The notes under the pieces were generated by a model. It was given only the letters and a program-made list of their open reading frames with translations. It did not search any database and was not told where the DNA came from. A program made the translations under genes and the position numbers. Source: a virus. Taken from it: a DNA stretch of 64,000 nucleotides. Shown here in pieces: positions 38,012 to 63,795 of this stretch (positions are counted from its first letter, which is position 1; each line of letters starts with the position of its first letter). The stretch covers positions 1-64,000 of the IMG/VR virus record IMGVR_UViG_3300025668_000745; one strand, 5' to 3'.

Positions 38012-38018
38012 ATTTTAA

Positions 38019-38047
38019 TTGACAAACTGTATTTAAGACTGTATACT
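38019..38047 (+). promoter_or_regulatory. Near-consensus sigma70 promoter heading the enzyme cluster
   Basis: TTGACA (38019-38024)-N17-TATACT (38042-38047), then a GGAG RBS and the ATG at 38067. Confidence 0.8.
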
Positions 38048-38066
38048 AACAGTATGGAGTATACGT

Positions 38067-38420
38067 ATGGATAAAAAACTTGAAGCAGCATTAGACTTTA
38101 CTAATTATTCGCTTACATTAGAAAAACAAAAACTTATAGCAAAAAACCACTTCAAAAAATCTATTATTTTGAATTACGAAGGCGGTATGTTTACAGTATC
38201 GATGGAGTTATTGTCTTATTGTAAATTAATGGAAAAAGATAGCAACTACGAACAATACATTATTATTGACGATAATGATATCCCAATTGAAATAACAAAC
38301 TTAGAAGAATTTTATACACAGGCTCGTAGGTTGTATTACAAACACTGTAAACAATATCTAAATGAGTATAAACGTTTAATTGGCAAAAGAGACGTAAAGG
38401 GTATTGTATTTGATGAGTAG
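38067..38420 (+). CDS. Hypothetical protein (117 aa)
   Basis: Good RBS and first gene after the promoter. No function recognised. Confidence 0.75.
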   Translation: MDKKLEAALDFTNYSLTLEKQKLIAKNHFKKSIILNYEGGMFTVSMELLSYCKLMEKDSNYEQYIIIDDNDIPIEITNLEEFYTQARRLYYKHCKQYLNEYKRLIGKRDVKGIVFDE

Positions 38421-39231
38421 CGGAGTATTGTTATTTGCAAGTAATAATAAATCAGTTGATTATGTAAAGCAAGCTATTTTCCTTGCTAAACGCATACGCA
38501 AGTATATGGACTTGCCCACTTCGATTGTTACGACTGACAAAGACTATAACATCGAACCCAGTGTGTTTGATAAGATCGTTTATGTTGATGATACAAAAAA
38601 GATTAATAATCGAATATATAATGATGCAGCTAAATCTATTACATTAAATTTTAAAAATAATTTACGTCCGTTGGCGTACGATCTTTCACCGTATGATAAT
38701 ACTTTTTTAATGGATACTGATTATATAGTTTCCAGTAATTATTTAAAAGGTTTTTTGCAACAGTATGAGGATTTTTTAATTTTTAAAGATAGCATTAATA
38801 TAGGATATGAAGATAATGCTGATACGTTTAAGTACATAGGTAAAAATAGTATTGACTTTTATTGGGCTACAGTAGTTTATTTTACTAAATCAAATAAGAA
38901 TAAAGTATTTTTTGACTTATTAAAACATATACAAGAAAATTATTATAATTATGCAGTAAATTATAACTTACAAAATACAATGTATAGGAACGATCATGCA
39001 TTTAGTATTGCAATTCATATAATGAATAATTTTGGACAGTCTAATCTTTTCAAAACTTTTCCAACTCCTATAATTTATACTTTAGACAAAGAAGAATTAT
39101 TAGAAATTAACGATACAGAATTAACATTATTATCTCGAAACTCAGATAAAATTAATACTGTATTACATAAAACAAAAGACATAGATGTTCATGTAATGAA
39201 TAAGTTTAGTTTAGAAAAGTTAATATCATGA
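38413..39231 (+). CDS. GT-A fold glycosyltransferase (GT8/nucleotide-diphospho-sugar transferase-like)
   Basis: DY...A..LA.RI N-terminus, SPYDNTFLMDTD (DxD) and RND.AF. Likely starts at ATG 38413 (ORF track gives 38404). Confidence 0.75.
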   Translation: MSSGVLLFASNNKSVDYVKQAIFLAKRIRKYMDLPTSIVTTDKDYNIEPSVFDKIVYVDDTKKINNRIYNDAAKSITLNFKNNLRPLAYDLSPYDNTFLMDTDYIVSSNYLKGFLQQYEDFLIFKDSINIGYEDNADTFKYIGKNSIDFYWATVVYFTKSNKNKVFFDLLKHIQENYYNYAVNYNLQNTMYRNDHAFSIAIHIMNNFGQSNLFKTFPTPIIYTLDKEELLEINDTELTLLSRNSDKINTVLHKTKDIDVHVMNKFSLEKLIS

Positions 39232-40082
39232 GTAAGGGTTTTCTGTTATTTGCTCAAAATAACTCAACAACAGATTATGTGCGACAAGCATATGCATTAG
39301 CATGTAGTATAAAAGCTACACAAAAAACTCACTCTAATGTTTGTTTAATTACTGATAAAAATGTTAGTGACAATTATTCAAAAGTTTTTGATCAAGTTAT
39401 AGTAATACAGTCTGACGATGCATTAAACAGTGAATGGAAGATTGAAAATAGATATAAAATTTATGATCTTAGTCCGTATGAAGAAACTATTGTGTTAGAT
39501 ACTGATATGTTAGTATTATCAGATTTGTTAGACTACTGGCAAGACTTTTCAACACACGATATTTGCTTTACTACTGATGTAAGAACATTTAGAAATAAAC
39601 CTATAACAACTGGACTATGGTATTATAGAAAAGCATTTGTAAGATTTGAGCTACCTAATACATATGTTGCACTACATTATTTTAAAAAGACAACTCTAAC
39701 AAAGATGTTTGCAAAATATTTAGAAATTATTAATAAAAATTGGGAAGTAATATATGGTACATTTACAGGTGGCAATGCTTTTCAAAAATGGGCAAGTATT
39801 GATGTTAGTGCTGCATTAGCAATTCGAGTTTTAGATATTGAAAAGGAAGTTACTCCAAAGAATTCTGTAATTAATTTTACTCATATGAAAGTATACCATC
39901 AAGAGTTTGATAATTTGCAAAATAATTGGCAAGATTATATTACTGCTTATATGACAGACGAATTAGAACTTTTTATTGGCAACTATAAACAAGGTGGAGT
40001 TTTTCATTATATTGAAGATTCGTTCTTAAGCGATAAAATTATAAAAAAATATGAAAAGTATTTGAATTATGCAGAATTATAA
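39228..40082 (+). CDS. GT-A fold glycosyltransferase, paralogue of the preceding gene
   Basis: DYVRQAYALA.SI, LSPYEETIVLDTDML (DxD), FTHMK and FHY motifs. Confidence 0.8.
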   Translation: MSKGFLLFAQNNSTTDYVRQAYALACSIKATQKTHSNVCLITDKNVSDNYSKVFDQVIVIQSDDALNSEWKIENRYKIYDLSPYEETIVLDTDMLVLSDLLDYWQDFSTHDICFTTDVRTFRNKPITTGLWYYRKAFVRFELPNTYVALHYFKKTTLTKMFAKYLEIINKNWEVIYGTFTGGNAFQKWASIDVSAALAIRVLDIEKEVTPKNSVINFTHMKVYHQEFDNLQNNWQDYITAYMTDELELFIGNYKQGGVFHYIEDSFLSDKIIKKYEKYLNYAEL

Positions 40083-40644
40083 AAAGAGAATTTCCTATCT
40101 AAATAAAATTAATAATAAAGTACCTATCTGGTATTGCGAATATGATAGCAAGTCTAACGATATTATATGTTTTACAACAATTGATAATAAAACATCTACA
40201 CGAATTGAAGTTTCACATGACACTGCAATGAAGTTTAATAGTGGAGAAAAACATTTATATCAATATTTTGTCAATGTTGACAGTAATGCTGTTGAAATTA
40301 AACAACAGTTTTTAAAGCCTAAAACAACAAACTTTTTTGAAGTAATACAACAAACAGATATATGTGATATTATAATACAAAAGGACTACAAAAACAACAA
40401 GTGGAAATTTAGTTGTAATAATGTTGAGAACAACATTGACGGATCATTACATTTCAGCATTACTCAGAAAGACAACCCAAATTTGCTATATAGAAGTATA
40501 ACCATTTCTGTAAATGAGATAACTGATAATACTGTAGAAGTTGACTTTACAGAACACGATAAAAACACTAAAGACTATAGTGTGTTCACAGTTAAAAAGT
40601 TTCAATCGTATACATTAGAGGAAAAACATGCATCAAACACTTAA
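40069..40644 (+). CDS. Hypothetical protein (191 aa)
   Basis: Overlaps both neighbours within the operon. No motif recognised. Confidence 0.7.
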   Translation: MQNYKKRISYLNKINNKVPIWYCEYDSKSNDIICFTTIDNKTSTRIEVSHDTAMKFNSGEKHLYQYFVNVDSNAVEIKQQFLKPKTTNFFEVIQQTDICDIIIQKDYKNNKWKFSCNNVENNIDGSLHFSITQKDNPNLLYRSITISVNEITDNTVEVDFTEHDKNTKDYSVFTVKKFQSYTLEEKHASNT

Positions 40645-42244
40645 AGTAAAAGATTTAGATATAATATATCTATCTTACGATGAACCAAACGCAGAAAAAA
40701 ATTATGAAGACTTACTTACAAAAGTGCCTTGGGCAAAGCGTGTACACGGAGTAGAAGGCAGCGATGCCGCACACAAAGCATGTGCTAAACTTAGTAATAC
40801 AGATCGATTTATTACTATAGACGGTGACAACATAATTAATCCTAAGTTTCTGCAAGAAGAAATATATTTCTATGATGGTGCAGATATCGACAAGGCTGTT
40901 ATTAGTTGGACTGCTAAAAATTCAATTAACAATTTAATGTATGGTAATGGCGGCATTAAGTGTTGGCCAAAATCTCATGTTTTAAATATGCAAACACATG
41001 AAAATGCTGAACCAGATAATGTCAAAGCACAAGTCGATTTCTGCTGGGACATGGAGTACATACAACAAGATACTTGTTATTCGATGATAATGAATAATTA
41101 TACTCCTCATCAAGCGTGGCGTGCTGGGTTTCGTGAAGGGGTTAAGATGGCACTCAACGAAGGAACACAACTATCTAAAGACGGATTGTTATCTCAACAT
41201 TGGAAAAATCTAAATAGACTCTATATTTGGACAATGGTCGGCTGCGATACTATAAACGGCGACTGGGGAATACTTGGGGCAAGAGCAGGTTTGTATATGG
41301 CTATGTGTACAGATTGGGATTTTATACAAGTAAGAGATTTTGAACATTTAAACGACTTATGGAAACAGTCCTTTGAATCGATTGAAAACGTTGAAGATGA
41401 AATTGTTGAATACGGTATCAAACTCATTAATGCACTTGATCTTCCAATTGCTGAAAATCCGTTATCAGCTCAACAGAGTAAATTCTTCAAAACAGTGTAT
41501 CGAAACCCTCCAAGATTAATATCGCCTAAAGTTGTCAAAGCATCTCCAGTAGCAAAAACAGAATACGATATTGTAATGATAACATATAACGAAGAATATA
41601 TGAATCAAAACTACAAGAGATTATTAGAAAGATTTCCTTATGCAAAGCGTATACACGGAGTAGATGGAATTCATAATGCACATATAAAAGCAGCAGAGCT
41701 ATGCACAACTGATATGATTTGGATAGTTGACGGTGATGCTGTTATTGACGACGATTTTAATTTTAACTATGCAGTTCCTAAATGGGATTTAGACACAGTG
41801 CATGTATGCAATAGTAAAAATCCTATTAATGATTTAATTTACGGTTATGGTGCTATTAAACTATTTCCGAGAGAACTTACTCTTAATATGGATAAGTCTA
41901 AGCCGGATATGACTACAAGTATAAGTAATAAATTTAAAAAAGTATACGAAATAAGTAATATTACTGAATTTAATACAAGTCCGCTAAACACTTGGAAAAG
42001 TGCATTTAGAGAATGTTGTAAACTTTCAAGCAAAGTAATAGACAGACAAAAAGACGACGAAACAAACGAACGATTAAATATTTGGTGTACAGTTGGCAAC
42101 GACAGACAATACGGAGAATATGCAATCGATGGTGCCAACGAAGGCAGAAAATACGGAGAATACTATCGTGATTCACTGCAAGATCTGCGTAGAATAAATG
42201 ATTTTATGTGGTTAGAGGAGAGATTTAATGAGCATTACAAATAA
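40628..42244 (+). CDS. Tandem two-domain GT-A glycosyltransferase-like protein
   Basis: Two internal copies of DI....Y.E....NY..LL...P.AKR.HGV.G...AH...A.L..TD.....DGD, GxG.IK..P and W...FRE..K. Confidence 0.75.
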   Translation: MHQTLKVKDLDIIYLSYDEPNAEKNYEDLLTKVPWAKRVHGVEGSDAAHKACAKLSNTDRFITIDGDNIINPKFLQEEIYFYDGADIDKAVISWTAKNSINNLMYGNGGIKCWPKSHVLNMQTHENAEPDNVKAQVDFCWDMEYIQQDTCYSMIMNNYTPHQAWRAGFREGVKMALNEGTQLSKDGLLSQHWKNLNRLYIWTMVGCDTINGDWGILGARAGLYMAMCTDWDFIQVRDFEHLNDLWKQSFESIENVEDEIVEYGIKLINALDLPIAENPLSAQQSKFFKTVYRNPPRLISPKVVKASPVAKTEYDIVMITYNEEYMNQNYKRLLERFPYAKRIHGVDGIHNAHIKAAELCTTDMIWIVDGDAVIDDDFNFNYAVPKWDLDTVHVCNSKNPINDLIYGYGAIKLFPRELTLNMDKSKPDMTTSISNKFKKVYEISNITEFNTSPLNTWKSAFRECCKLSSKVIDRQKDDETNERLNIWCTVGNDRQYGEYAIDGANEGRKYGEYYRDSLQDLRRINDFMWLEERFNEHYK

Positions 42245-43127
42245 AGAATTTTTACATGGATTACAAGAATATAGTGAATTTAAGACAGAAGGTTCGGTTG
42301 CACGAAATGTAAAATCTTTCTTAGATATCCTATATGCAGAGGATCAAAAGTCTGCTTTTGTTAATCATTTCTTACCAAAAGATCTTGCAAATATTTACGG
42401 ATCTGATAATTTTGAGCAAGACCTTATTGTATATCTTTTAAATAATTATGAAGGCAACGATACTCGTTATTTTAGATTTATTAAGGACTTTATCAAAAAA
42501 GATAAAGACATGAATATACTCTCAGATGCATTAAGTAGAAGCCAAATCAAGAGTAAGATATGGTTAGTAAATGAGCTTGAAAAAATATCTAATCATTATG
42601 GCAATGTTGTACTATTAGCTGGTTGGTACGGACAGTTAGTTGAGTTGTTTGGAGATAGTGTAGACAAGATTACATTTAAAAAATTTAGAAACGTTGAAAT
42701 TGATATAGATGCATGTAATGAAAGTGACTATAATTTTAACTTACGTCGAATAGATGATTACAAAGTAAAATCTATACACGGCGATATTAATAATCTTAAT
42801 CTGCACGGAAGCGGATATCAGTGGGACGTAGAAAATTTTAAAACTGAAGAAAAATATAATGAGCAATTTTACCCAGACCTAATTATAAACACAAGTGCTG
42901 AACATATGACAACTGAATGGTTTAATCAAATTAGATTTAACCCTTGGAAAGATCATAAACCTATTGTTGCTATACAAAGTAATAATTATTTTGACTTAGA
43001 AGAACACGTAAATTGCGTACATAGTATTAATCATATGAAAAAACTATTTCCTATGAGTAAAATATTATATGAAGGTGAATTACAACTTAAAGGTTATAAG
43101 AGAGTTATGTTGATCGGTGAAGCATAA
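42228..43127 (+). CDS. Class I SAM-dependent methyltransferase-like protein
   Basis: SKIWL, VVLLAGWYG (motif I-like), acidic EID, DLIINTSAEH and QSNN. Confidence 0.6.
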   Translation: MSITNKEFLHGLQEYSEFKTEGSVARNVKSFLDILYAEDQKSAFVNHFLPKDLANIYGSDNFEQDLIVYLLNNYEGNDTRYFRFIKDFIKKDKDMNILSDALSRSQIKSKIWLVNELEKISNHYGNVVLLAGWYGQLVELFGDSVDKITFKKFRNVEIDIDACNESDYNFNLRRIDDYKVKSIHGDINNLNLHGSGYQWDVENFKTEEKYNEQFYPDLIINTSAEHMTTEWFNQIRFNPWKDHKPIVAIQSNNYFDLEEHVNCVHSINHMKKLFPMSKILYEGELQLKGYKRVMLIGEA

Positions 43128-43801
43128 TGAAACGAATACTATGTATCGGCGACAGTCATACTGCTGGACATAATAGACGCACTAACGTATCTGGCCCTGA
43201 CGATATTGTAACTCCTAAGAATTGGTCAGCCTATTTACAAAAAACATTTCGTAATTCAGAAGTTTGGAATTTATCATTATCAGGTTCAAACAACTTTTTC
43301 TCTGGTATAATACTTGATAGTTTTTTAGAAACTTATACTCCTGATGTAGTAATTTATCAGATATCTGATCATAGAAGATTTATAAAAATAAAACGTACAA
43401 CTAAATTAAATTTATTAGAAAGTACAAATTGTGTTGCTCCTAATTATTATGCATTACAAAGACGACCTTTCCCCTTTGGAATGATGGTTAGTCCACAGAG
43501 CTTTTCATCTGCATCACGTAAAGAGATAATTCGGCTGTATACAGCGTTATCTGATGACGACATTGTATATTTAAATAGTATTGCAGTAGAAAGGAATCTT
43601 CTAAAATTACAGAATATTCCACATTACGCATTTTATTGGCGCAAAGAAGATGCTGTTATTACAGGCTACGACAGTGTAGATGATATATTAGGATCACAAT
43701 TTCATAGTTTTGTTGAAGACAACGGATGTCACTTAAATACTACAGGACACGGACTTGTTTACAATAACATTATTCATACAAAGGTAGTAAACTTACTATG
43801 A
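43127..43801 (+). CDS. SGNH/GDSL hydrolase-like protein
   Basis: IGDSHTAG (block I), NLSLSGSNN and C-terminal DNGCHLNTTGH. Confidence 0.75.
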   Translation: MKRILCIGDSHTAGHNRRTNVSGPDDIVTPKNWSAYLQKTFRNSEVWNLSLSGSNNFFSGIILDSFLETYTPDVVIYQISDHRRFIKIKRTTKLNLLESTNCVAPNYYALQRRPFPFGMMVSPQSFSSASRKEIIRLYTALSDDDIVYLNSIAVERNLLKLQNIPHYAFYWRKEDAVITGYDSVDDILGSQFHSFVEDNGCHLNTTGHGLVYNNIIHTKVVNLL

Positions 43802-44025
43802 TAGATTTAAAAGATCTCCCTGTTAGGGAATTACAAAAAGAAAGTGCAAGAGCTCTAAGTACAATACAAGCAACTAACAATAATATTTGGCAGTTTAATA
43901 AAAAAGCTCATCACAATAGTCATAATTGGTATTGTGCTGTAATAGACTGGTATATTGATCAATATGGAGATTTGCCCAGTAAAGCAGGCCCTGGTAAAGA
44001 TGTAAAATTGGTGTTAGATGTATGA
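43798..44025 (+). CDS. Small hypothetical protein (75 aa, H/N/W-rich)
   Basis: 4-nt ATGA overlaps with both neighbours, indicating translational coupling. Confidence 0.75.
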   Translation: MIDLKDLPVRELQKESARALSTIQATNNNIWQFNKKAHHNSHNWYCAVIDWYIDQYGDLPSKAGPGKDVKLVLDV

Positions 44026-44654
44026 GAAAAAATGTATTCTGTTTTGGATGCAGCTTTACTAACGGTATCCATTTTGCCCAAAAAGACTGGAGAGCTTCAT
44101 ATCCGTATCAGCTATCTCTACTCATGCCGGACGTAGATGTTTATAATCTTGGGGTATCTGGTGGAAATAATATACTGAATGATATGATAATAAAAAAAGC
44201 ACTTGAGGAGTATTCCGTAGATTTTTCTATTGTACAGTTTACATTTCCAAATAGATTTTATATTTCGTTATCTGATAGTTCTGAAAAAATAGGTATTAGG
44301 TACGGGGTTAAGCAGCTAAGTGATAATTATTACTTGTTATCCAAAGAGTACATAGCAGAATATTTTAATATTTTTACGCCAAGCTACTTGAAAAGCAATG
44401 TTCAAAGGATTAAGCAACTGTATAAATTACTACCAAAAAGACAAATAGCTCATATAAATGAAACAGCTTATTTGTCAACATTATATAGATTAAAAGACTT
44501 GCATCATTATACTTGGTCTTGGAACGAAGACACGTTAGGCACTAATGTAGTACCTAATAGCCTAAAATTAGAAAAATTTGATGACGGTACTGGACATTTG
44601 ACTCAAAAAGGTAATCGGGTACTTGCAGGCTATTTAAAAGGTGAAATAGCATAA
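44022..44654 (+). CDS. SGNH hydrolase-like protein (GCS variant)
   Basis: FGCSFTNG, NLGVSGGNN, QFTFPNR and DDGTGHLTQKGN. Confidence 0.75.
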   Translation: MRKNVFCFGCSFTNGIHFAQKDWRASYPYQLSLLMPDVDVYNLGVSGGNNILNDMIIKKALEEYSVDFSIVQFTFPNRFYISLSDSSEKIGIRYGVKQLSDNYYLLSKEYIAEYFNIFTPSYLKSNVQRIKQLYKLLPKRQIAHINETAYLSTLYRLKDLHHYTWSWNEDTLGTNVVPNSLKLEKFDDGTGHLTQKGNRVLAGYLKGEIA

Positions 44655-45737
44655 ATGTATAGATACGAAGACATCAAAGAAGTACACTTAGAAATTACGC
44701 AAAAGTGTCAAGCGGCCTGTCCTATGTGCGATCGTAACATGAATGGCGGAGATGATAATCCTCATATTACAAATGCAGAACTTAGTTTAGAAGATGCAAA
44801 AAGAATGTTTAGTCCTGCTTTTATAAAGCAATTAAATGTTATGTATATGTGCGGCAACTTAGGAGATCCTATTGTTGCTAAAGATACGCTTGAAGTATTC
44901 AAATATTTCCGCGAACATAACGATAAGATATGGTTGAGCATGAATACTAATGCTGGAGCCAAGAGTGCTGAATGGTGGACAGAACTTGCAGGAGTTATTG
45001 GTCGCAAGGGAGCAGTAATTTTTAGTGTAGACGGTTTAAAGGATACAAATCATTTATATCGACAGAACGTTGTTTGGAATAATGTTGAACGTAACATGCG
45101 AGCATTTATTAATGCTGGAGGCAGAGCCCGTTGGGACTTCTTAATTTTTGCACACAATGAACATCAAGTAGATGAAGCAGAAGCACTTGCTACTCAGTGG
45201 GGATGTGAAAAGTTTATCAAGAAAAAATCAGGTAGATTTATTACAAGTGATATTAAACCTAAAACATCTCATCAAGCAATAAATCGTAAAGGGGCTGAAA
45301 CACAAAACTTAGCACAGCCTAAAGATGAAAAGAATAAAAACATAGCACTACTAAAACAAAAAGAAATTGAAAAGTCTTATGGTAGTATGAAAGAGTATTT
45401 AGATAAGTGCAGTATTACTTGTAAAGTTGCAAACCAAGGAAGTATTTTTGTAACAGCAGAAGGACTTTTAATGCCGTGTTGTTGGACTGCTGGACGTATG
45501 TACAAATGGTGGCATGCAGATCCCCGTGTAGAACAGGTATGGGATCATATAGATAATGCTGGCGGAAAACAAGGCATAAGTATTATAGACAATGACATTA
45601 AACACGTGGTTAATGGAAAATTAATAGATAGTATCACTGCAAGTTGGCAAAAAAATAGTATTGCTGACGGAAAACTTGGCGTTTGCGCTCAAAAATGCGG
45701 TAGTGAATTTGACCCGTATAAGGAGCAATTTGTATGA
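44655..45737 (+). CDS. Radical SAM protein with C-terminal SPASM/twitch-like domain (type B)
   Basis: CQAACPMC, CGNLGDP, FSVDG; C-terminal C...G..MPCC...CAQKC. Confidence 0.92.
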   Translation: MYRYEDIKEVHLEITQKCQAACPMCDRNMNGGDDNPHITNAELSLEDAKRMFSPAFIKQLNVMYMCGNLGDPIVAKDTLEVFKYFREHNDKIWLSMNTNAGAKSAEWWTELAGVIGRKGAVIFSVDGLKDTNHLYRQNVVWNNVERNMRAFINAGGRARWDFLIFAHNEHQVDEAEALATQWGCEKFIKKKSGRFITSDIKPKTSHQAINRKGAETQNLAQPKDEKNKNIALLKQKEIEKSYGSMKEYLDKCSITCKVANQGSIFVTAEGLLMPCCWTAGRMYKWWHADPRVEQVWDHIDNAGGKQGISIIDNDIKHVVNGKLIDSITASWQKNSIADGKLGVCAQKCGSEFDPYKEQFV

Positions 45738-46450
45738 TATACGTAGGCGGCGACAGCTATGCATATGGATCAGAATTATTAGATATATCAAATCGTTTTG
45801 GTGATATTGTATCAGATGCTATGGGAACAACAAATCAAAACGATGCAATAGGCGGCGCAAGTAATCAAAGAATTTACCGTAAATTTTTTGAAGCGTTTGA
45901 TCCTAATAAATTTTCACATGTAATTTTAGGATGGACTGGCCTAAACAGATTTGAACATTATTCTGTCTTTGATCAAGATTATGACGGTTATAGAAGAATA
46001 ACTGCACATCGATTACTTCCTTCTAACAAACATGAAGATTACATAGATGAAAAACTTAGAAAAAGAATCGCAAAATTGCGAGATGATGTAAAGGTATCTA
46101 AAGAAAATAAAGTATTATTGCAGTACATGGCTAATGTACGTACTGACAGAGTTATACATGCTGAAATTTTAAATATGATACTGCAAGTACAAAGGATGTG
46201 TAAATATACTGACACAAAATTATGCATGTTTTTTGGAGTACAGAATAATATCATAAAATTCAATGAATTAATAACAGATCATTTAATGTACAATAGTGTA
46301 GACTGGAATGATACATGGCTTTATCAACCAGATTATTCTTTACAGGAATGTATGAATGATTTAAAATTACCAATAGGCCCAGGGAAACACTTTTTAGAAG
46401 AAGGCCATCAAGTTGCTGCTGACAAAATATTGGAGCATTTTAGTGTCTGA
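45734..46450 (+). CDS. SGNH hydrolase-like protein
   Basis: GGDSYAYG, GGASNQRI, WTGLNRFE and GKHFLEEGH. Confidence 0.75.
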   Translation: MIYVGGDSYAYGSELLDISNRFGDIVSDAMGTTNQNDAIGGASNQRIYRKFFEAFDPNKFSHVILGWTGLNRFEHYSVFDQDYDGYRRITAHRLLPSNKHEDYIDEKLRKRIAKLRDDVKVSKENKVLLQYMANVRTDRVIHAEILNMILQVQRMCKYTDTKLCMFFGVQNNIIKFNELITDHLMYNSVDWNDTWLYQPDYSLQECMNDLKLPIGPGKHFLEEGHQVAADKILEHFSV

Positions 46451-47463: not shown

Positions 47464-47464
47464 A

Positions 47465-56751: not shown

Positions 56752-58158
56752 ATGACTTACAAATCGCCGTCAGACACATTTTGCTTACTGCCTTGGGTAC
56801 ATTTAAGTACAAGACCGGACGGCAGTATGCGAGTATGTTGCACAGCTAATGCAAGTAGTGTTGGCGCAACCAATGACAAAGAGCACGGCGGCCAAGTTGG
56901 CATCCTTAAAACTGAAGACGGTAAGCCTAATAATTTAAATGTTAGTGATTTTGAATCAGCATGGAACAGCACATACATGAAAAATGTGCGTAAGCAGATG
57001 CTTAATGGTGAAAAGCCACCCAGTTGTATAAAATGCTTTAAAGAAGAAGCGGCTGGTCACAATTCAAAGCGTATGTGGGAAACACATTATTGGAGCCAGA
57101 GAGTTGATGTTGATAAAATTATTGCTGACACAAAAGAAGACGGATCAGTTCCACCTCAACTTGCGTACATTGATTTACGCTTTGGTACTAAGTGTCAGTT
57201 AGCATGTGTTATGTGTAGCCCACATGATAGTTCAGGTTGGATTAAAGATTATAAAGCAATTTTTCCTGCTGTAGAAAACGCCAGTCTTAAAGAAACAATG
57301 CAATGGCAAGACAAAGGAAGTTATAATGGTAGTAGTTATAACTGGCATAAACAAAATCCTACTTTCTGGAAACAGTTTTATGAACAAATGCCAAGTATGC
57401 AGCAGATCTATTTTGCAGGCGGCGAAAGTCTTATTATTGAAGAACACTATGAAATACTTGAACACGCAATTAAAATGGGATATGCTAAAGATTTAGAGCT
57501 ACGCTATAATTCAAACGGTGTTGAATGGCGTGAGGATTTATTTGATTTATGGAAAGAATTTAAACTTGTACGATTCCATTATTCAGTAGACAGTATACAC
57601 GAAATGAATGACTATATACGTTATCCAAGTGTATGGAGTAGAACAAGTGAAGTCTTTCATATATTAGATAACGAAACAAGTAATAACGTAGAAGTTACAG
57701 TTGCATGTGCAGTGCAAGCTCTTAATATATATTATTTGCCCGACTTTATAAAATGGAAACTTAACGAAGGATTTAAAAAGATTAATATGTGGCCTTTTGG
57801 CGCCGGCGGTATTAACTATCACTTTGTATATCATCCACCGCATTTAAATGTAAAAGTTTTACCCAAATGGTTTAAAGAAGAATGCCGTAAGAAGTATGAA
57901 GAATTTTATCCGTGGTGGGAAGCTAATTGGGAAAAGGGTGTACCGAGCTGGCACAAAGGCAAAGTTGATTACGACAAATGGCGCAGTGCAAGTTATGGTA
58001 TTGATAGATTAGAAGGAATGTTAACGTTTATGGAAAGCGAAGACTGGAGTGTGCGACTTCCTGAAATGAAAGAATTTTTAGATTTATGTGACACACAACG
58101 CGGCATAACTTTTGCAGAAACTTTTCCTGAAATGAAGGATATATTTAAGGATGTCTAA
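56752..58158 (+). CDS. Radical SAM protein with N-terminal twitch-like domain (type A)
   Basis: CLLPW...RVCC...CIKC, CQLACVMC and AGGE. Confidence 0.92.
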   Translation: MTYKSPSDTFCLLPWVHLSTRPDGSMRVCCTANASSVGATNDKEHGGQVGILKTEDGKPNNLNVSDFESAWNSTYMKNVRKQMLNGEKPPSCIKCFKEEAAGHNSKRMWETHYWSQRVDVDKIIADTKEDGSVPPQLAYIDLRFGTKCQLACVMCSPHDSSGWIKDYKAIFPAVENASLKETMQWQDKGSYNGSSYNWHKQNPTFWKQFYEQMPSMQQIYFAGGESLIIEEHYEILEHAIKMGYAKDLELRYNSNGVEWREDLFDLWKEFKLVRFHYSVDSIHEMNDYIRYPSVWSRTSEVFHILDNETSNNVEVTVACAVQALNIYYLPDFIKWKLNEGFKKINMWPFGAGGINYHFVYHPPHLNVKVLPKWFKEECRKKYEEFYPWWEANWEKGVPSWHKGKVDYDKWRSASYGIDRLEGMLTFMESEDWSVRLPEMKEFLDLCDTQRGITFAETFPEMKDIFKDV

Positions 58159-59473
58159 CACCTTTTGTCCTATTCCCTGGATATTTCAAGCAGTACGTAA
58201 TAACGGCGATATTAGAGTATGTTGTCAAGCAAACGTAACTAAAAATCAAGGTGTTGTTAGACACGAAGACGGCAAACCGTATAATGCCGGAAGAGATGAT
58301 ATGTCAAAAGCACGTAATGCAACTCTTATGAAAGAAATACGGAAAAATATGCTTGACGGAGTATGGAGTGAAGAGTGTACTCGGTGTATGAACGAAGAAG
58401 CAAGTGGGTTAAACAGTCGAAGACAGTACGAATTAGAAAATTGGAAATTTGATTTAGACGAAGCAGCATCTATAACTGAGTTAGACGGATCTATATCTCA
58501 ACCTCCAATAAGTTATTATGATTTACGCTTTGGTAATATGTGCAACCTTGCATGTCGTATGTGTGGCCCAACTGACAGCCATACCTGGTATGAACAGTGG
58601 ATAGATTATCACGGCGGCGACGGATATGATGATACTCATGGTAGAGTTACGTTAAAGAAAAATGAAAAAGGAAGATTATATACCAACGATTATGATTGGC
58701 ACAACAGCGAAAGTTTTTGGGAACAAATAGAAAAAAATATTTCAAATATTGACCATGTATATATGGCCGGCGGCGAGCCAATGATGATTGAACGTCATTA
58801 CGAGTTTTTACAAAAGTGTATAGACAGCGGTTATGCAAAAAAAATTATTATTGAATATAATACAAATATGACAACTTTGCCTGATCGAGTATTAAAAATG
58901 TGGACATATTTTAAACAAGTAAGAGTTGGCGCAAGTATAGACGGAATGGGTGATGTTGTTGAATATCAACGTTGGCCACTAAAATGGAAAAGTGCATATC
59001 GTAATTTAAAAAAACTTGATGACTATGCGTATAACAATAAAAATATTATTGCTTGGATAGCATTTACAGTTACAGCATACAACGTATGGCATACACCAGA
59101 ATTTATGTGGTGGAAATTAAAAGAAAGCGGATTTAAAGCAATTAACAGCACTAAGAAACGTCCTATTATTACACATCATGTTGCTCACGGACCAAAAAGA
59201 GCAAACATTAAGATTTTGACACCTGAGCTTAAAATAAAATTACAAGAATATTATAACGAATGGATTGATCGTGTTAATGGCGATAACGAAATTACACCTT
59301 TACAAAAAGAAAAATTTGCTGATATATTAGCAAGTATTTTAAAATTCTCCAATAGTGCAGATATGAGTGATCAAATACCGCAGTTTATAAAATTTACTAA
59401 ATATCTCGACGATACTCGTAAGCAAGATATATTATCAATTGCGCCAGAATACAAGGATTTATTTGATGGCTGA
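58151..59473 (+). CDS. Radical SAM protein with N-terminal twitch-like domain (type A)
   Basis: CPIPW...RVCC...CTRC, CNLACRMC, AGGEP and SIDG. Confidence 0.92.
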   Translation: MSNTFCPIPWIFQAVRNNGDIRVCCQANVTKNQGVVRHEDGKPYNAGRDDMSKARNATLMKEIRKNMLDGVWSEECTRCMNEEASGLNSRRQYELENWKFDLDEAASITELDGSISQPPISYYDLRFGNMCNLACRMCGPTDSHTWYEQWIDYHGGDGYDDTHGRVTLKKNEKGRLYTNDYDWHNSESFWEQIEKNISNIDHVYMAGGEPMMIERHYEFLQKCIDSGYAKKIIIEYNTNMTTLPDRVLKMWTYFKQVRVGASIDGMGDVVEYQRWPLKWKSAYRNLKKLDDYAYNNKNIIAWIAFTVTAYNVWHTPEFMWWKLKESGFKAINSTKKRPIITHHVAHGPKRANIKILTPELKIKLQEYYNEWIDRVNGDNEITPLQKEKFADILASILKFSNSADMSDQIPQFIKFTKYLDDTRKQDILSIAPEYKDLFDG

Positions 59474-60473
59474 CTTTCTACCAATGATGTATCAAGATAG
59501 TCCAATAACTAAAGTACTCCAAGAATCAACAACTTTTAACTTTGCTACTACAGTATCAGATTATTGTAATTACTCGTGTCATTACTGCTGGCCTGGAGCA
59601 CATGCTGGAACAATGAAACTTCCGCCACCTACAGATATATTCAAGCATAATATTAAAAAATATTGCAAATGGGTTAAAAAACATAACCCAAAAATAGAAA
59701 ATTTTTATTTTCATTATAGCGGCGGCGAGCCTTCTATGTTCCCCCATATGTCTGATTACCTAAAGTTTGTTGCTGATGAAATACCTAATGGGTATAGCGG
59801 ATTGCAAACAAACGGATCTCGAACAATTAGATGGTGGGAGAAAAATTTACCAAATCTTCATTCATTATCGATAAGTGTACATGTTGGTAGCGCAGATCCT
59901 AATCATTTAATAGAACTTGCAAAACTTTGTGAAGAACACAAAGTAGATTACAATCTAAATGTTGCAGCCGATCTTCGAAATAAAAAGAAAGTATTAAAAT
60001 TTTTAGAATTATTTTCTAAAAATAATCTACAAACGGGATTTCATCTAATACAAGAAATACACGAAACCTGGGACGATAATGATCTACACACTAATAAAGA
60101 GTTTTATGAGGCGTGTGATAGTTTTACAGCGCATTATCAAGATCGTAATAGTAATTCAGAGTTACAACGTAAAGTAACATTTGAAACAGAAGATTCAAAG
60201 AAACCAATTAAGTTTGATGAAATGCAGAGAAGTTCAATGAGGGGAGATTGGACTGGATATGATTGTAATACACCGGCACAATTTATGATGATTAATTCAC
60301 AAGGTCATTTATATATATCTTGTGGTAATAAAATTGGACCACTAATTAAAAAAATTGATTTATTTAAATCTAAATTATCAGTTATTCCTGCACAACCTTG
60401 GGTGCGTTGTACAACTGGATATTGTAAGTGTACAGGCTTATGGCATGCCAATAAACAATTAGTAATAAAGTAG
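59466..60473 (+). CDS. Radical SAM protein with C-terminal Cys cluster (type C)
   Basis: CNYSCHYC, SGGEP, TNGSR; C-terminal G..C...C...CTTGYCKC. Likely ATG at 59466 (ORF track gives 59439). Confidence 0.9.
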   Translation: MADFLPMMYQDSPITKVLQESTTFNFATTVSDYCNYSCHYCWPGAHAGTMKLPPPTDIFKHNIKKYCKWVKKHNPKIENFYFHYSGGEPSMFPHMSDYLKFVADEIPNGYSGLQTNGSRTIRWWEKNLPNLHSLSISVHVGSADPNHLIELAKLCEEHKVDYNLNVAADLRNKKKVLKFLELFSKNNLQTGFHLIQEIHETWDDNDLHTNKEFYEACDSFTAHYQDRNSNSELQRKVTFETEDSKKPIKFDEMQRSSMRGDWTGYDCNTPAQFMMINSQGHLYISCGNKIGPLIKKIDLFKSKLSVIPAQPWVRCTTGYCKCTGLWHANKQLVIK

Positions 60474-60502
60474 TTGACTTTTGCAAACAAAGAATGTAAT
60501 AT
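60474..60502 (+). promoter_or_regulatory. Internal sigma70-type promoter, probably giving a leaderless mRNA
   Basis: TTGACT (60474-60479)-N17-TAATAT (60497-60502). The ATG at 60509 is 6 nt later and has no Shine-Dalgarno sequence. Confidence 0.55.
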
Positions 60503-60508
60503 ATTAAT

Positions 60509-61627
60509 ATGAGCGAAGATTTAAAATGGTCAAATTATGACTTTACTAAAATACCTTTTGACGACATTGTCTCTGTGGGGCAACGTACTCTGCTGTATCG
60601 TGATATATTTACTGTATCATGGTTACTTGGACGTTTCTGCAACTACAAGTGTTCCTACTGTTGGCCCTATGCCCGAAGTGACCGTAAAGATCACAGACCT
60701 ACCGAGCTCTGCTTGCGAACAGTGGATGAAATTAAACGTCAAGCCAGAGACAACGGCTTCAATTCTTTCCACTTCTCCTTGTCAGGAGGAGAGCCTACTT
60801 TCCATCCTGGATACTTGGACATACTAAAGCACTTAGCTGACGATGTAGATAATACTAACTATACAAGTGTACACATGACATCAAACTGTAGTCGCAACAT
60901 GCGTTGGTTTGAACAGTATGTAGAAGCAGTTAAACCATTTCATAGAGCAAGCATTACAGCAAGCCTGCACACAGAACACTTAAACACAAAGGAGAAGATG
61001 CAGGACTTTGCAGATAAACTAATCCTGTGTCAAGAACACGATGTACAAGTTACAATTAATATGGTCATGGTGCCGGACTGGTTTGAACGTGATTGGGAAA
61101 ATGCACTGTTCTTTCACGAACAAGGTATCAACGTTACTCTTAAACCACAATCAGACCCTACTGCTTCTAAAGTTGTTGACGGATACAAACCGGAAGACCT
61201 AAAACGTTTACATAACGGTATGCCGCAACGTGCATATACAGAAAGCAAACGTAAGTGGGAAGGTAGACCAAAACCTGCCTTTCAAATTCCACAAGGAGCA
61301 GACGGGAAACTTGATGCAAGTGTGCCTTGGCATTTTCAAGTAGAGTTTAAAGACTCAACAGGTAAAAAATGGTTCATGGATCAAGCAGAAAGATTTAATG
61401 CATTTAATTTTAATAAGTTTGAAGGATGGCGATGTAATGCAGGGTATCAAGGAATTATTATACGTGAACCGGACGGTTCAGTAAAGCGTAGTTATAGCTG
61501 TCATGATACGCCTCTTGGTAACATAGAAACAGGATTTAAGTTATTTGACAAACCTATGCCATGTATAACTAAATCCTGTGTAAGTAGTGCAGATAGTAAA
61601 ATACCTAAGACTAAAATTATTTCTTAA
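60509..61627 (+). CDS. Radical SAM protein with C-terminal Cys cluster (type C)
   Basis: WLLGRFCNYKCSYC, SGGEPT; C-terminal GWRCNAG...C...CITKSC. Confidence 0.92.
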   Translation: MSEDLKWSNYDFTKIPFDDIVSVGQRTLLYRDIFTVSWLLGRFCNYKCSYCWPYARSDRKDHRPTELCLRTVDEIKRQARDNGFNSFHFSLSGGEPTFHPGYLDILKHLADDVDNTNYTSVHMTSNCSRNMRWFEQYVEAVKPFHRASITASLHTEHLNTKEKMQDFADKLILCQEHDVQVTINMVMVPDWFERDWENALFFHEQGINVTLKPQSDPTASKVVDGYKPEDLKRLHNGMPQRAYTESKRKWEGRPKPAFQIPQGADGKLDASVPWHFQVEFKDSTGKKWFMDQAERFNAFNFNKFEGWRCNAGYQGIIIREPDGSVKRSYSCHDTPLGNIETGFKLFDKPMPCITKSCVSSADSKIPKTKIIS

Positions 61628-62249
61628 ATACTACCGGAATTTCTTCTTTTATACGTCTTTCAATCTTTACATTTTCTGTATGATGCTCACGTCTTTGTCT
61701 TGTGCTATCTTTAAATCCGATACCCATTAAAAGTATACTTGGATTATCAAACCCTAAAATTTCTTCAACTTCTGATTTATCGTAACATGCACAACACCCT
61801 GTTTGATAACCTAACATTGTAGCAATAACATTTAAATAGCCAGCAGCAATACCTACAGCCATTTCTCTATCACGTCTTAACATGTTGTTATCTGATTCGT
61901 CATTATTTTTAAACTTTTTGTTATATTGTGCAGACATATCATTTGCTTCAAATGCAACAAGTAAGTTTGCAAGTGTTTGTGGATTTGTACATTCTACTCT
62001 ATCTCCTGTTTCAGGATCAGCATATCCTAATCCTAATGAATTGGCATGTACTTGTTCTATAATATTTCTGTCTGTAATAAAGTGGGCTTTGTAAAACGCA
62101 AAGTTTTGTTTGCTCGGACAGTTAGTAACAGCGTGTACTAAAACATCAATATCCTCTTCTGGAATACTTTTACTAAGATCCCAATTTCGTTGTGTATGTT
62201 GGCTTTTGATTACTGATTTTTTAATCTCGTTGCGAAAGTCTAATTCCAT
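61617..62249 (-). CDS. Nitroreductase-family (FMN-binding) protein
   Basis: QRNWD...IPEEDI......PSKQN, GIAAG......LGY.TGCC and GIG motifs. Confidence 0.8.
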   Translation of the reverse strand: MELDFRNEIKKSVIKSQHTQRNWDLSKSIPEEDIDVLVHAVTNCPSKQNFAFYKAHFITDRNIIEQVHANSLGLGYADPETGDRVECTNPQTLANLLVAFEANDMSAQYNKKFKNNDESDNNMLRRDREMAVGIAAGYLNVIATMLGYQTGCCACYDKSEVEEILGFDNPSILLMGIGFKDSTRQRREHHTENVKIERRIKEEIPVVFKK

Positions 62250-62270
62250 AATGAATACTCCTTGTACTAT

Positions 62271-62277
62271 TATTTAT
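62271..62277 (-). promoter_or_regulatory. Putative late promoter ATAAATA for the nitroreductase gene
   Basis: Minus-strand ATAAATA followed by an AAGGAG RBS and the ATG at 62249. Confidence 0.5.
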
Positions 62278-62333
62278 TCAAATATGTATTATAACTAAAC
62301 CGATATGCATAATTACTTATAAAGGAAGCAAAA

Positions 62334-63086
62334 ATGGATTCAAAAACACATGATAAGGACGGTAATCCTTTAAACTTGATGCCTAAGGCAAACAGATTGC
62401 ATCAAGCAAGTTATTACGATACATGGTTAACTACTCCTGAAAGATATGAACCAACTCCTGAAGATATAAAATGCGAACTGCAACTTCAAGCCTTGGGTAA
62501 TTTTGAGCAGTTGTGTTTCAACTTTAATTACGAAAAGTTTACAAAAGAACTCGAAAATTTTGAGTTTGTGCCTTACTTGCGTAGAGAAGGTATCACCAAT
62601 GACCGAGACGGATTAATGTTAGTTGGATTAGAGGGCGATAAGTCAAACGATAGTTTAAGTAGACCCGAAGCTATTGCTCGTGCTGGCAGACACTTAGAAG
62701 AAACAGATTTTACATTTCCTACTGATGCATATATTGGACTAACTTCTCTACACGAAGTCTTAGATTATTGGGGTGGATTAGGACGCACAATGATTGTTAA
62801 AAGTAACAAGGGAGGCTGGTTCCCACCACATCGAGATGCTCCACAACTTACAAGAGATTGTTTTAGAGTTATTGTATTTCTTGGCCCTGCAACAGATTTT
62901 GATGCATATGAATGGTACTTGGGAGACGAAAGAAGAATAATTATTCCTAATACTGCATACTATGTAGACACACGTAAAGTACACAGAACACATGCTTGGG
63001 CAGACGATAGTTATCACTTAGTATTAAATGTTCCAAAAACTTGGCCTAATGTACTTAAACTTATGAGCAAATTAAGACACTATTGA
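62334..63086 (+). CDS. 2OG-Fe(II) oxygenase / aspartyl-asparaginyl beta-hydroxylase-like protein
   Basis: GGWFPPHRD (HxD) and distal YYVDTRKVH...HLVLN jelly-roll pattern. Confidence 0.7.
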   Translation: MDSKTHDKDGNPLNLMPKANRLHQASYYDTWLTTPERYEPTPEDIKCELQLQALGNFEQLCFNFNYEKFTKELENFEFVPYLRREGITNDRDGLMLVGLEGDKSNDSLSRPEAIARAGRHLEETDFTFPTDAYIGLTSLHEVLDYWGGLGRTMIVKSNKGGWFPPHRDAPQLTRDCFRVIVFLGPATDFDAYEWYLGDERRIIIPNTAYYVDTRKVHRTHAWADDSYHLVLNVPKTWPNVLKLMSKLRHY

Positions 63087-63087
63087 T

Positions 63088-63795
63088 ATGCGTTCTGAAA
63101 GCCAAATCAACTTATTAAAATCACATCATTCAGATCCGTTTTCATTATCTAATTTCCTTACATCGCAAGAGGTTGAGGATCTATTAGATTACTATTTTAA
63201 TAATCAAGACAATGTTATTAAAAAAACAACAGGACCGAGTGTACTAAAAATAAAAGATAACTTATTAGATAATATAATAAGCAGACTAAAATTACAAATA
63301 GGTGACTTTGATATAAGGTATGCACATTTCTTTGATGTAACCGGTCCGCATGTAATTCACAATGATGACGAATTTGATTATCCAGAATCGTATAAAGCAT
63401 TTACAATACCGCTTAAAATATATGGTAATAGTGATGATGTAAAATTAGTTATATATGATCAATATTACTACGGAGGCCCTGCTAAATTTTTTAATAATCA
63501 AGACACAAGTACTTGGAATGTGCATTATAATCCACCGCTTACTGATTATACTAATGTTGAAAATACAAATAACAGTGGTATATCAAAAACTGAAAAGGAA
63601 GAATATCTTACACACTTGGAAGATAAATGGTTGGAAGGGTTAAGCATCAAAAGTATGTTAGATTGGAAAATACAAAATGTTTTATGTTTTGACAGTTTAC
63701 AATTACATTCGTCTACAGATTTTAATGCTAAAGGCATTGAACGAAAAATAGGATTAAGTATATTTACAGTTTTATCTGATCAAGCAAAAGACTAA
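63088..63795 (+). CDS. 2OG-Fe(II) oxygenase-like protein
   Basis: N-terminal NFLT..EV..L, IHND (HxD), IPL and FDS.QLHSS. Confidence 0.65.
   Translation: MRSESQINLLKSHHSDPFSLSNFLTSQEVEDLLDYYFNNQDNVIKKTTGPSVLKIKDNLLDNIISRLKLQIGDFDIRYAHFFDVTGPHVIHNDDEFDYPESYKAFTIPLKIYGNSDDVKLVIYDQYYYGGPAKFFNNQDTSTWNVHYNPPLTDYTNVENTNNSGISKTEKEEYLTHLEDKWLEGLSIKSMLDWKIQNVLCFDSLQLHSSTDFNAKGIERKIGLSIFTVLSDQAKD

Follow-up and report, generated by a model that had tools for sequence, protein, structure and literature searches.

What might a marine phage build with fifteen radical S-adenosylmethionine (SAM) enzymes encoded behind its tail fibre genes, and onto what would the product be placed? The question is posed by IMGVR_UViG_3300025668_000745, an 84,643-bp IMG/VR virus contig of which we analysed the first 64 kb (positions 1 to 64,000; hereafter the window). 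Here, a packed operon opens a stretch that the first-pass annotation of this DNA had taken for a single ~25-kb pathway. Instead, the stretch proved to be part of a roughly 38-kb island, which continues past 63795 to about 75774 on the contig, consists of modules with different histories, and holds 44 genes, 15 of them for radical SAM enzymes (13 in the window and two beyond). The island is modular and hypervariable, and occupies the tail-fibre (host-recognition) region of an uncultured marine, probably jumbo, myovirus. Genes are named below by their start positions, and features are collected in Table 1.

The explanation that we favour, with a probability of about 0.45, is that the island encodes a cytoplasmic sugar-tailoring system with the virion fibres as its preferred target. 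A cytoplasmic sugar product is favoured because a radical SAM gene is nested between GT-A-like glycosyltransferase genes in the cultured Ralstonia jumbo phage RsoM2USA (MG752970), because homologous islands (those of Mosig, L004, and G001) hold sugar enzymes, because of the BtrN-type twitch domain in many of the radical SAM proteins, and because no precursor peptide, recognition element (RRE) for RiPPs (ribosomally synthesised, post-translationally modified peptides), or membrane machinery was found. The virion is favoured as the target because the position behind the fibre genes is fixed. In such a system, the operon would be transcribed as one translationally coupled unit, and soluble GT8-like and twin GT-A-like transferases would attach sugars to a cytoplasmic acceptor, with a methyltransferase and four SGNH-type enzymes putting on or taking off small groups. 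The 15 radical SAM enzymes, eight of them with a BtrN-like twitch domain relocated to the N-terminus, would edit unactivated C–H positions of the sugar residues or of their nucleotide-sugar precursors, for which oxidation to keto-sugars, epimerisation, and deoxygenation are candidate reactions, as is C-methylation by one B12-type enzyme. Flavin mononucleotide (FMN) reductases, a nitroreductase, and a peroxiredoxin could serve electron supply and the protection of Fe–S clusters in an aerobic host, and 2-oxoglutarate (2OG)/TauD/Asp_Arg hydroxylases may install further hydroxyl groups. The favoured acceptor would be the phage's own fibre or other virion proteins, and the island would then provide a variable coat for host recognition or evasion.

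Operon layout and promoter

The operon comprises 24 co-oriented open reading frames (ORFs) on the + strand (38067-60473), packed as the first-pass annotation had described: at each of the 23 junctions, neighbouring genes overlap or abut or are no more than 1 nt apart (range -92 to +1 nt). Since four of the starts (38404, 46413, 53024, and 59439) are TTG codons chosen by the longest-ORF rule, some overlap lengths may be overstated. A 35-nt gap follows 60473, after which comes a further radical SAM gene (60509-61627), and the largest intergenic gap is 84 nt. The near-consensus sigma-70 promoter that had been placed upstream is also present (TTGACA-17-TATACT, 11/12 consensus positions) and is the top-scoring site within 37500-45000; promoter-like sites overall are not enriched (40 versus 44.5 +/- 7 in shuffles). 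TTGACA is found in the same slot of the related locus L003, and the slot before the head gene of the relative G001 holds a late-type TATAAATA in place of the sigma-70-like site. With no more than three copies of TATAAATA on the entire 84.6-kb contig and a promoter type that differs among relatives, motifs do not reveal the timing of expression. CTAAATA / TAAATA-type words lie 22-44 nt before two fibre genes (window 36930 and 35336; L034 about 1290-1300, - strand).

The radical SAM array

Thirteen radical SAM enzymes had been predicted in the window, and this number holds: CxxxCxxC is present in 13/13, and 11/13 pass the PF04055 gathering cut-off of 29.5 bits. The two below it, 44655 (27.3 bits) and 51712 (22.8 bits), are both rescued by paralogy, and 51712 also by its 234.5 bits to the family NF033640 (N_Twi_rSAM, cut-off 170 bits). 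With PF04055, the scores of the two genes outside the window are 30.2 and 52.1 bits. Interleaved with SGNH proteins, the array has three architectures, namely family A (NF033640, N-twitch) and families B and C.

In family A, seven genes score 225.3-417.7 bits to NF033640 over model positions 1-398, with an eighth at 162.7 bits. Here, four N-terminal cysteines (C6, C24, C76, and C79) are invariant in the 8 paralogs and in 36 sequences, and with these four a fully Cys-ligated auxiliary cluster is expected in the N-terminal domain. In fact, profile positions 5-76 match the twitch domain of BtrN (PDB ID: 4m7t) with an E of 5.8e-5, and the Pfam SPASM model matches residues 11-95 of 56752. BtrN, a twitch radical SAM enzyme, is 2-deoxy-scyllo-inosamine dehydrogenase; the likeness is one of domain homology only, as the twitch domain here is N-terminal and not C-terminal to the core, and the core is not closest to that of BtrN. 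In family B (44655, the split 46413/47071, and 55525), it is the C-terminal part that is SPASM/twitch-like, and family C (54321, 59439, and 60509) has four invariant C-terminal cysteines, with MoaA, anSME, and the viperins as its closest solved relatives, all of them remote. Because each family has an added Cys/twitch-type domain, every radical SAM enzyme of the island probably carries an auxiliary cluster. The two pieces of the split 46413/47071 align to residues 9-204 and 282-387 of 55525, and they may represent either an enzyme of two subunits or a gene that has been broken. Close to where ORF 47071 ends, at 47455, the DNA run X3 lacks 5 nt.

NF033640 is a named NCBIfam family (twitch domain-containing radical SAM protein) without a known reaction, and our literature search for it returned no paper describing the family. 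In a quick tree of 73 family A proteins, the eight window paralogs fall into eight separate orthogroups, each together with other phages (SH-aLRT 99-100), that of the eighth gene having 7 rows, and there are further orthogroups without a member in this phage; long branches of this tree, those of the bacterial rows among them, are unsure. Because each paralog groups with other phages, the array appears to consist of old, distinct enzymes and not of a recent amplification. Moreover, the 30 nearest ESM Atlas clusters among the matches listed are 88-100% viral, so the families are conserved and dominated by phages, and NF033640 is, on these sequences, mainly a phage family. It is expanded in this phage and its relatives (5-11 members above the cut-off in each of 5/5 related records) and rare in our bacterial sample of 301 genomes, Bacteroidota only, where three pass the cut-off, one of them a metagenome-assembled genome (MAG) with probable phage contigs.

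The head module and its counterparts in RsoM2USA and bacteria

Before the array stands a head module, made up of a pair of GT8-like genes, one twin GT-A-like gene, and one gene for a probable methyltransferase. The glycosyltransferases, methyltransferase, and SGNH proteins that the first-pass annotation had listed here fared unevenly. The GT8-like sequences 38404 and 39228 have visible DTD motifs and a weak profile match to glycogenin (GT8; E 0.0056 over 100 residues), and no Pfam or NCBIfam match. In 40628, the GT2 model (PF00535) scores 23.2 bits over a 50-residue stretch, just under its cut-off of 23.3; the N-domain profile weakly matches GmaR (E 0.073), and PDB sequence and profile searches with the C-domain gave nothing significant. 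The 40628 family is large (1571 representative proteins at E<=0.001), and its domains also occur singly or repeated up to 13 times, those of 40628 itself being encoded by two genes each in L003 and RsoM2USA. For 42228, a methyltransferase is no more than probable: it is 28% identical to Mosig_00090 ('putative methyltransferase') and its ESM Atlas neighbours carry methyltransferase families, and neither sequence nor profile searches of the PDB gave a significant match. The SGNH-like proteins have Ser/His motifs, with an N-terminal GDS in 3/4 (GCS in the fourth) and a C-terminal G-x-H-L/F in 4/4 (G-x-H-L in the 43127/44022 pair, which has GDS or GCS plus this motif); all four are below the Pfam cut-offs, and none has the canonical DxxH of block V. 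The 75-aa protein encoded between the pair is conserved end to end, has one Cys, and lies directly before a radical SAM gene in L003 and L014.

More conspicuously, RsoM2USA has a minimal head module behind its fibres, in the order fibre, 38067-like, GT8 pair, GT-A(N), N-twitch radical SAM, GT-A(C), and 42228-like (Table 1), and among 50,697 phage records it alone has a 40628-type protein. The order of baseplate, giant virion protein, fibres, and head module is the same as on our contig, with the RsoM2USA virion protein ORF361 (>288 kDa) in the region of the window's 4998-aa ORF; the RsoM2USA record labels all of these ORFs hypothetical, and the word 'radical' is absent from the text of the paper (PMC8504454). 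In contrast to the window, RsoM2USA has two N-twitch radical SAM genes instead of eight, no family B or C gene in the stretches examined, and a soil plant-pathogen host.

Similar partners are met in bacteria. In G157, four tandem N-twitch radical SAM genes occur with an SGNH gene, a GT2-methyltransferase fusion, an Alg9-like GT-C, and PMT_2. A chromosomal cluster of G085 (L027, G085:C2:1207001-1227000) has two N-twitch radical SAM genes, five PhyH genes, a WelO5-like oxygenase, a methyltransferase, an SGNH gene, a B12-type radical SAM gene, and a reductive-dehalogenase-like Fe–S protein, together with a secreted fibre-like 842-aa protein with Peptidase_S74 and type IX secretion system (T9SS) features. 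The pairing of N-twitch radical SAM with SGNH/DUF6071 thus recurs in the window, RsoM2USA (ORF200-203), G157, and G085, and as the latter two show, the guild of SGNH, methyltransferase, oxygenase, and glycosyltransferase partners recurs outside phages. The G085 locus is an uncharacterised tailoring cluster in its own right.

Conservation, selection, and transcription

The relative G001 (233 kb, 65% complete) is collinear with the contig, and the slot of its island is again the one that follows the fibre genes and precedes a downstream conserved block. Here, the core radical SAM proteins 56752, 58151, and 60509 are 72.6%, 71.3%, and 72.1% identical, as against 39% for the baseplate wedge and 52-53% for SbcC/SbcD, and the G001 island also has a carbamoyltransferase homolog. 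Among 14 IMG/VR loci with 58151 orthologs at 70-72% identity, orthologs of 60509 (71-88%) are present in 13/14, of 56752 (70-86%) in 8 of the 21-kb stretches, and of the 75-aa protein in 10/14; the remaining island genes are mosaic. In L004, a UDP-glucose/GDP-mannose dehydrogenase gene comes directly after the 58151 ortholog. Conserved co-occurrence and synteny, which the first-pass annotation had made a test of its reading, are therefore seen, the island standing behind fibre genes in the window, L003, G001, and RsoM2USA.

Nor is selection relaxed overall. Compared with locus L002 (95-99.8% identical; 20 genes), there are 331.5 synonymous and 146.5 non-synonymous differences, giving a ratio of non-synonymous to synonymous change (pN/pS) of 0.104, and pN/pS is <=0.23 in 19/20 genes. 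The sole exception is 59439, at 1.13 (39.5 non-synonymous, 8.5 synonymous), with changes mostly after residue 140 and the first 140 residues, including the Cys motif, nearly unchanged; by these figures, this cassette is either decaying or diversifying. Variation by a diversity-generating retroelement, considered for its 48 differences in view of the nearby Mtd_N fibre gene, was rejected as the changes are not adenine-specific. One contig of the DNA run X3 joins 59465 to 60440, where depth drops; its short side is 25 nt, and it is a hint only. As for transcription, two metatranscriptome runs of the source study gave four and five short, mostly identical contigs on 54321, 59439, and 60509, which is weak evidence for a transcribed island, given that DNA carry-over is possible and that the uncovered parts are uninformative.

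The distal redox/hydroxylase module

Beyond the core array lie redox and hydroxylase genes. The nitroreductase named in the first-pass annotation is secure (PF00881, 34.7 bits versus 23.5). Of its two 2OG oxygenases, 62334 is retained weakly, on its likeness to a Mosig protein (Table 1) and an hhalign E of 0.028 with the HxD motif aligned, and with no Pfam, NCBIfam, or PDB match; 63088 is not retained, having no match in family searches or in PDB sequence and profile searches. Past the window, the island has the eighth N-twitch-type radical SAM gene (- strand), the B12-type radical SAM gene, two FMN_red genes, a redoxin, two TauD genes, an Asp_Arg_Hydrox gene, a methyltransferase, and a desaturase. 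The B12-type enzyme is remotely PhpK/ladderane-like, and its NCBIfam neighbours are lipid-type.

The cultured pelagimyophage Mosig EXVC030M has, within its own island, a block to which this distal module is 33-75% identical (Asp_Arg_Hydrox 75%, desaturase 75%, TauD 64%, methylase 46%, peroxiredoxin 44%, and FMN reductase 34-40%), a likeness that far exceeds any in the structural genes. As the latter point to a different, jumbo lineage, this suggests that the module has been exchanged between unrelated marine phages. In Mosig (MT647606), the shared block lies between VrlC and a tail fibre gene, and the island includes an ArnB-like aminotransferase, a carbamoyltransferase, an epimerase, an N-acetyltransferase, and three 'MoaA-like' radical SAM proteins.

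Weighing the explanations

The glycan-type product proposed in the first-pass annotation has gained in that its link with sugars is strengthened by RsoM2USA, L004, Mosig, G001, and G157; a protein or peptide target is less likely. Several findings weigh against sugar tailoring of the virion. The glycosyltransferase assignments are all at or below family thresholds and so weakly supported, and this phage's own island has no sugar-nucleotide synthesis gene. The closest solved cores for the family A profile are 8vpo, a chain apparently linked to a paper on RiPP cyclopropyl synthases, and then SkfB, so that this family may also do peptide chemistry. Early expression, as the sigma-70-like promoter suggests it, would suit remodelling of the host no less than decoration of the virion. 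In the G085 cluster, a glycosyltransferase was not found, and the cluster looks like one for natural-product, small-molecule, or protein tailoring. Finally, the distal module has a separate history and may have another purpose.

The likeliest of the alternatives, though in itself unlikely, is host-envelope remodelling, whereby nucleotide-sugar pools or lipid-linked O-units would be rewired and the altered lipopolysaccharide or capsule would block adsorption of competing phages. Serotype conversion of the Gtr/Oac type uses a membrane flippase, GT-C, or AT3 acyltransferase. Such components were not found in Pfam scans of the island, in which no flippase, polymerase, AT3, GT-C, or GtrA/B/C-like protein was matched among the 44 proteins; moreover, 43/44 lack any hydrophobic 19-mer at a Kyte-Doolittle (KD) score >= 1.6, only the desaturase looking membrane-bound. 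The bacterial homolog clusters, on the other hand, do have membrane GT-C and PMT_2 genes, and the distal desaturase and Asp_Arg_Hydrox could act on lipid A, by a possible analogy with LpxO. The early-type promoter, shared by the window and L003, suits this idea too, and the late-type TATAAATA of G001 does not; nor does the retention of the slot right after the fibres in phages as distant as the soil Ralstonia phage. For the glycosyltransferases of islands of this type, Zaragoza-Solas et al. (2020; PMC7029224) proposed a change of the host O-chain, which we do not favour here as the membrane components were not found.

Rather unlikely, in our judgement, is that proteins, most probably those of the fibres or the giant virion proteins, are modified directly by radical chemistry of the RiPP kind (crosslinks, epimerisation, C-methylation, and hydroxylation), with glycosylation as one layer. 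SPASM/twitch radical SAM enzymes are typically peptide maturases, and a guild of radical SAM, B12-type radical SAM, 2OG oxygenase, and methyltransferase resembles heavily modified RiPP clusters. The 8vpo and SkfB cores agree with this, as do the fibre genes on both sides of the island and the fibre-like 842-aa protein adjoining the G085 cluster. A RiPP cluster proper was rejected: gaps of at most 84 nt leave no room for a precursor-like ORF in the packed operon, and none of 45 proteins matched an RRE/PqqD-like Pfam family at E<=0.01. Conservation of the 75-aa and 117-aa ORFs extends from end to end, and neither is rich in Cys, Ser, or Thr; a substrate gene could lie elsewhere. Against protein modification there are also the single Cys of the 75-aa protein, the 0.2% Cys of the giant protein, and the nesting of the RsoM2USA radical SAM gene between glycosyltransferase-like genes.

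A soluble small molecule or lipid (aminocyclitol, aminoglycoside-like, or a modified lipid), made during infection and acting on the host or on competitors, we consider improbable. The Pfam scans gave no scaffold-forming enzyme (cyclase, polyketide synthase, nonribosomal peptide synthetase, or terpene synthase) and no exporter, and the link to fibre and glycosyltransferase-like genes is tight. What speaks for such a product is that the enzymes look soluble, that BtrN, whose twitch domain is a homolog of the one here, acts on an aminocyclitol, that G085 has PhyH, WelO5-like, and dehalogenase-like genes, and that the desaturase and the B12-type radical SAM enzymes, with their lipid-type neighbours, would suit a lipid; a similar trio was read as 'antibiotic synthesis genes' in a cyanophage paper (PMC12801897).

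That there is no common pathway, the island being a hypervariable dumping ground of independent co-transcribed cassettes, would account for the mosaic content among relatives, for a distal module close to that of a pelagimyophage while the structural genes are not, and for one cassette (59439) with relaxed selection and possible loss. It is quite improbable nonetheless, as the same partners recur in distant phages and bacteria, the core trio is better conserved than structural genes, purifying selection is strong in 19/20 genes, and every junction of the operon overlaps or abuts. T4-type phages glycosylate DNA, and hypermodification of the phage DNA by base glycosylation with further editing would suit enzymes that look soluble and are possibly expressed early, but it is very improbable with an island in the fibre region, with bacterial homologs beside GT-C, secreted proteins, and SGNH, and with no nucleotide kinase, hydroxymethylase, DNA glycosylase-like, DNA-binding, or other DNA hypermodification family among the 45 proteins by Pfam, about three quarters of the genome being off the contig.

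Contig, phage lineage, and surrounding genes

The source DNA is that of a phage, and probably of a jumbo phage, because CheckV puts completeness at 24% for 84.6 kb and because the nearest cultured baseplates (wedge 33-35% identical) are from jumbo myoviruses with genomes of 337-490 kb, among them SCTP-2, Phosso, Munch, Atu_ph07, and XbC2. The contig runs from baseplate through the 4998-aa ORF, fibres, and island to the Mtd_N fibre gene. The 4998-aa ORF is Thr/Asn/Asp-rich with the low Cys content given above, and over 1168 residues it is 22% identical to the protein in the same position of G001. It was tried as a VrlC homolog and rejected, since it has no detectable similarity to Mosig VrlC, the only match being a marginal one outside VrlC. 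The first three fibre genes have a common N-terminal domain (phrog_14394 and phrog_15511 match all three N-termini), and the fourth fibre-type gene, 36959, has no family match and a homolog upstream of the island in L003.

Megablast of 48201-61627 against the 50,697 phage records gave no match, ten island proteins of unknown family matched 0 PHROG families, and nine non-radical-SAM island proteins gave nothing useful against NCBIfam. The stretch is present, whole or in part, in marine runs from 12 studies. Its sole match among species genomes is a 32.9-kb contig of a Crocinitomicaceae MAG (L020/G006), and these contigs are probably phage DNA binned with the MAG, possibly a host hint and not host evidence. 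Several contigs of that MAG have this radical SAM family, one gene being 85% identical to 56752.

Table 1. Features of the contig around the island, and counterparts in RsoM2USA (positions are those of the window unless marked)
Feature	Location	Strand	Remarks
SbcCD-like nuclease genes	upstream of island
Baseplate hub and wedge genes	upstream of island		phrog_10646, 960 bits
4998-aa ORF	15968-30964	+	directly after baseplate wedge gene
Four fibre-type genes	31602-33620, 33617-35338, 35380-36933, 36959-38011	+	PHROG tail fibre and tail collar matches
Sigma-70-like promoter	38019-38047	+	55-nt gap before first island gene
Conserved 117-aa protein	38067-38420	+	first head-module gene; no Pfam/PHROG match; homologs in L003 and G001 (39%)
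Two GT8-like (GT-A, DxD) glycosyltransferase genes	38404-39231, 39228-40082	+	paralogs, E 4e-13
191-aa protein	40069-40644	+	sub-threshold Pfam match only; weak homolog in L003
Twin GT-A-like protein	40628-42244	+	two paralogous domains (about 1-300, 310-538)
Probable SAM methyltransferase	42228-43127	+	widespread phage family without Pfam model; 894 homologs at E<=1e-5
SGNH-like pair	43127-43801, 44022-44654	+	GDSL matches below cut-off; paralogs, E 4e-13
Conserved 75-aa protein	43798-44025	+	between SGNH-like pair; 50-64% identical in 10 loci
Radical SAM, family B	44655-45737	+	CxxxCxxC at residue 18; 28% to 55525; 50-64% orthologs in L003, L007, L011, L013
DUF6071/SGNH-like protein	45734-46450	+	GDS at residue 6; paralog of 47465
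Radical SAM, family B, split in two ORFs	46413-47078 (core), 47071-47463 (Cys-rich C-terminal piece)	+	8-nt overlap
DUF6071/SGNH-like protein	47465-48214	+	paralog of 45734; sub-cut-off Pfam, Ser/His motifs
N-twitch radical SAM	48201-49415	+	NF033640, 225.3 bits
N-twitch radical SAM	49405-50499	+	NF033640, 256.5 bits
N-twitch radical SAM	50480-51724	+	NF033640, 257.5 bits
N-twitch radical SAM	51712-53115	+	NF033640, 234.5 bits
N-twitch radical SAM	53024-54349	+	NF033640, 245.8 bits
Radical SAM, family C	54321-55532	+	C-terminal four-Cys domain; remotely MoaA/viperin-like
Radical SAM, family B	55525-56751	+
Core N-twitch radical SAM	56752-58158	+	NF033640, 417.7 bits; 70-86% identical in relatives
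Core N-twitch radical SAM	58151-59473	+	NF033640, 372.8 bits; 70-72% identical in relatives
Radical SAM, family C	59439-60473	+	variable cassette
Core radical SAM, family C	60509-61627	+	PF04055, 58.8 bits; four invariant C-terminal Cys
Nitroreductase-family flavoprotein	61617-62249	-	53% orthologs in L009, L012, L013, L016
Probable cupin/Asp_Arg_Hydrox-like oxygenase	62334-63086	+	28% to Mosig_00081, E 4.6e-13
235-aa protein	63088-63795	+	no family match
Eighth N-twitch-type radical SAM	63764-64000 (contig 63764-64981)	-	3' end in window; NF033640, 162.7 bits; PF04055, 30.2 bits
Distal redox/hydroxylase module	contig 65007-75774 (L001 2007-12774)		FMN reductases, redoxin, TauD, Asp_Arg_Hydrox, methyltransferase, desaturase
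Fibre gene with N-terminal Mtd_N (major tropism determinant) domain	contig 75816-77576 (L001 12816-14576)	-	closes island
Fibre	RsoM2USA ORF355		N-terminal domain as in window
38067 counterpart	RsoM2USA ORF354		E 7e-14
GT8-like pair counterparts	RsoM2USA ORF353, ORF352		E 2.5e-50, 2.3e-51
Same position as 40069	RsoM2USA ORF351		no sequence match found
40628 N-domain counterpart	RsoM2USA ORF350
N-twitch radical SAM	RsoM2USA ORF349		316 bits; between two GT-A-like genes
40628 C-domain counterpart	RsoM2USA ORF348
42228-like	RsoM2USA ORF347
Second N-twitch radical SAM	RsoM2USA ORF202		305 bits; DUF6071/SGNH homologs (of 45734, 47465) on both sides, ORF200-203

Relation to known systems and significance

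Virus-encoded soluble enzymes are known to glycosylate virions without host membrane machinery in chloroviruses, on mimivirus fibrils, and in glycosylated mycobacteriophages. To our knowledge, none of these systems uses a radical SAM array. Closer in setting is the host recognition cluster (HRC) of the pelagimyophages Mosig EXVC030M and HTVC008M and their metagenomic relatives, for which Zaragoza-Solas et al. (2020; PMC7029224) described tail fibres, glycosyltransferases of the GT8 type, and 'radical SAM cassettes'. Like the HRC, our island is a large non-syntenic one in the structural region after a giant virion protein; unlike Mosig, the phage is of a jumbo lineage and has eight NF033640-type proteins, where Mosig has none. 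Nishimura et al. (2017; PMC5332604) reported a marine T4-like genome, TARA_ERS488813_N000010, with 12 radical SAM genes and Fe–S-related genes; they cite it as an Fe–S cluster consumer only and give no family, function, or structure of an array. This kind of island and the many radical SAM genes of marine T4-like phages are thus already in print in passing (PMC5332604, PMC7029224). New here are the module shared with Mosig, the collinearity with G001, and the minimal module of RsoM2USA.

Beyond sugar tailoring of the virion as such, we put forward, tentatively and with the odds clearly against it, that the N-twitch paralogs may form a combinatorial radical 'editing kit', in which at least 13 old orthogroups of the phages examined are shuffled as cassettes and would write a variable sugar (or sugar-plus-protein) code without chemical precedent on the tail fibres of abundant ocean jumbo phages. 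Because the cultured RsoM2USA has the minimal module, a bench test is possible.

Radical SAM enzymes carry out some of the hardest reactions in biology, and in NF033640 we have a family under strong purifying selection, better conserved than the baseplate, and repeatedly tied to sugar-transfer and SGNH genes beside genes for host range. If the host surface were what is changed, abundant marine bacteria would be subject to superinfection exclusion by a new route. If a virion glycan is the product, ocean phages would wear a variable chemical coat that current models of host range and defence ignore, and if the paralogs do work as an editing kit, they would add a new branch to radical carbohydrate chemistry and a new class to the determinants of host range or anti-defence.

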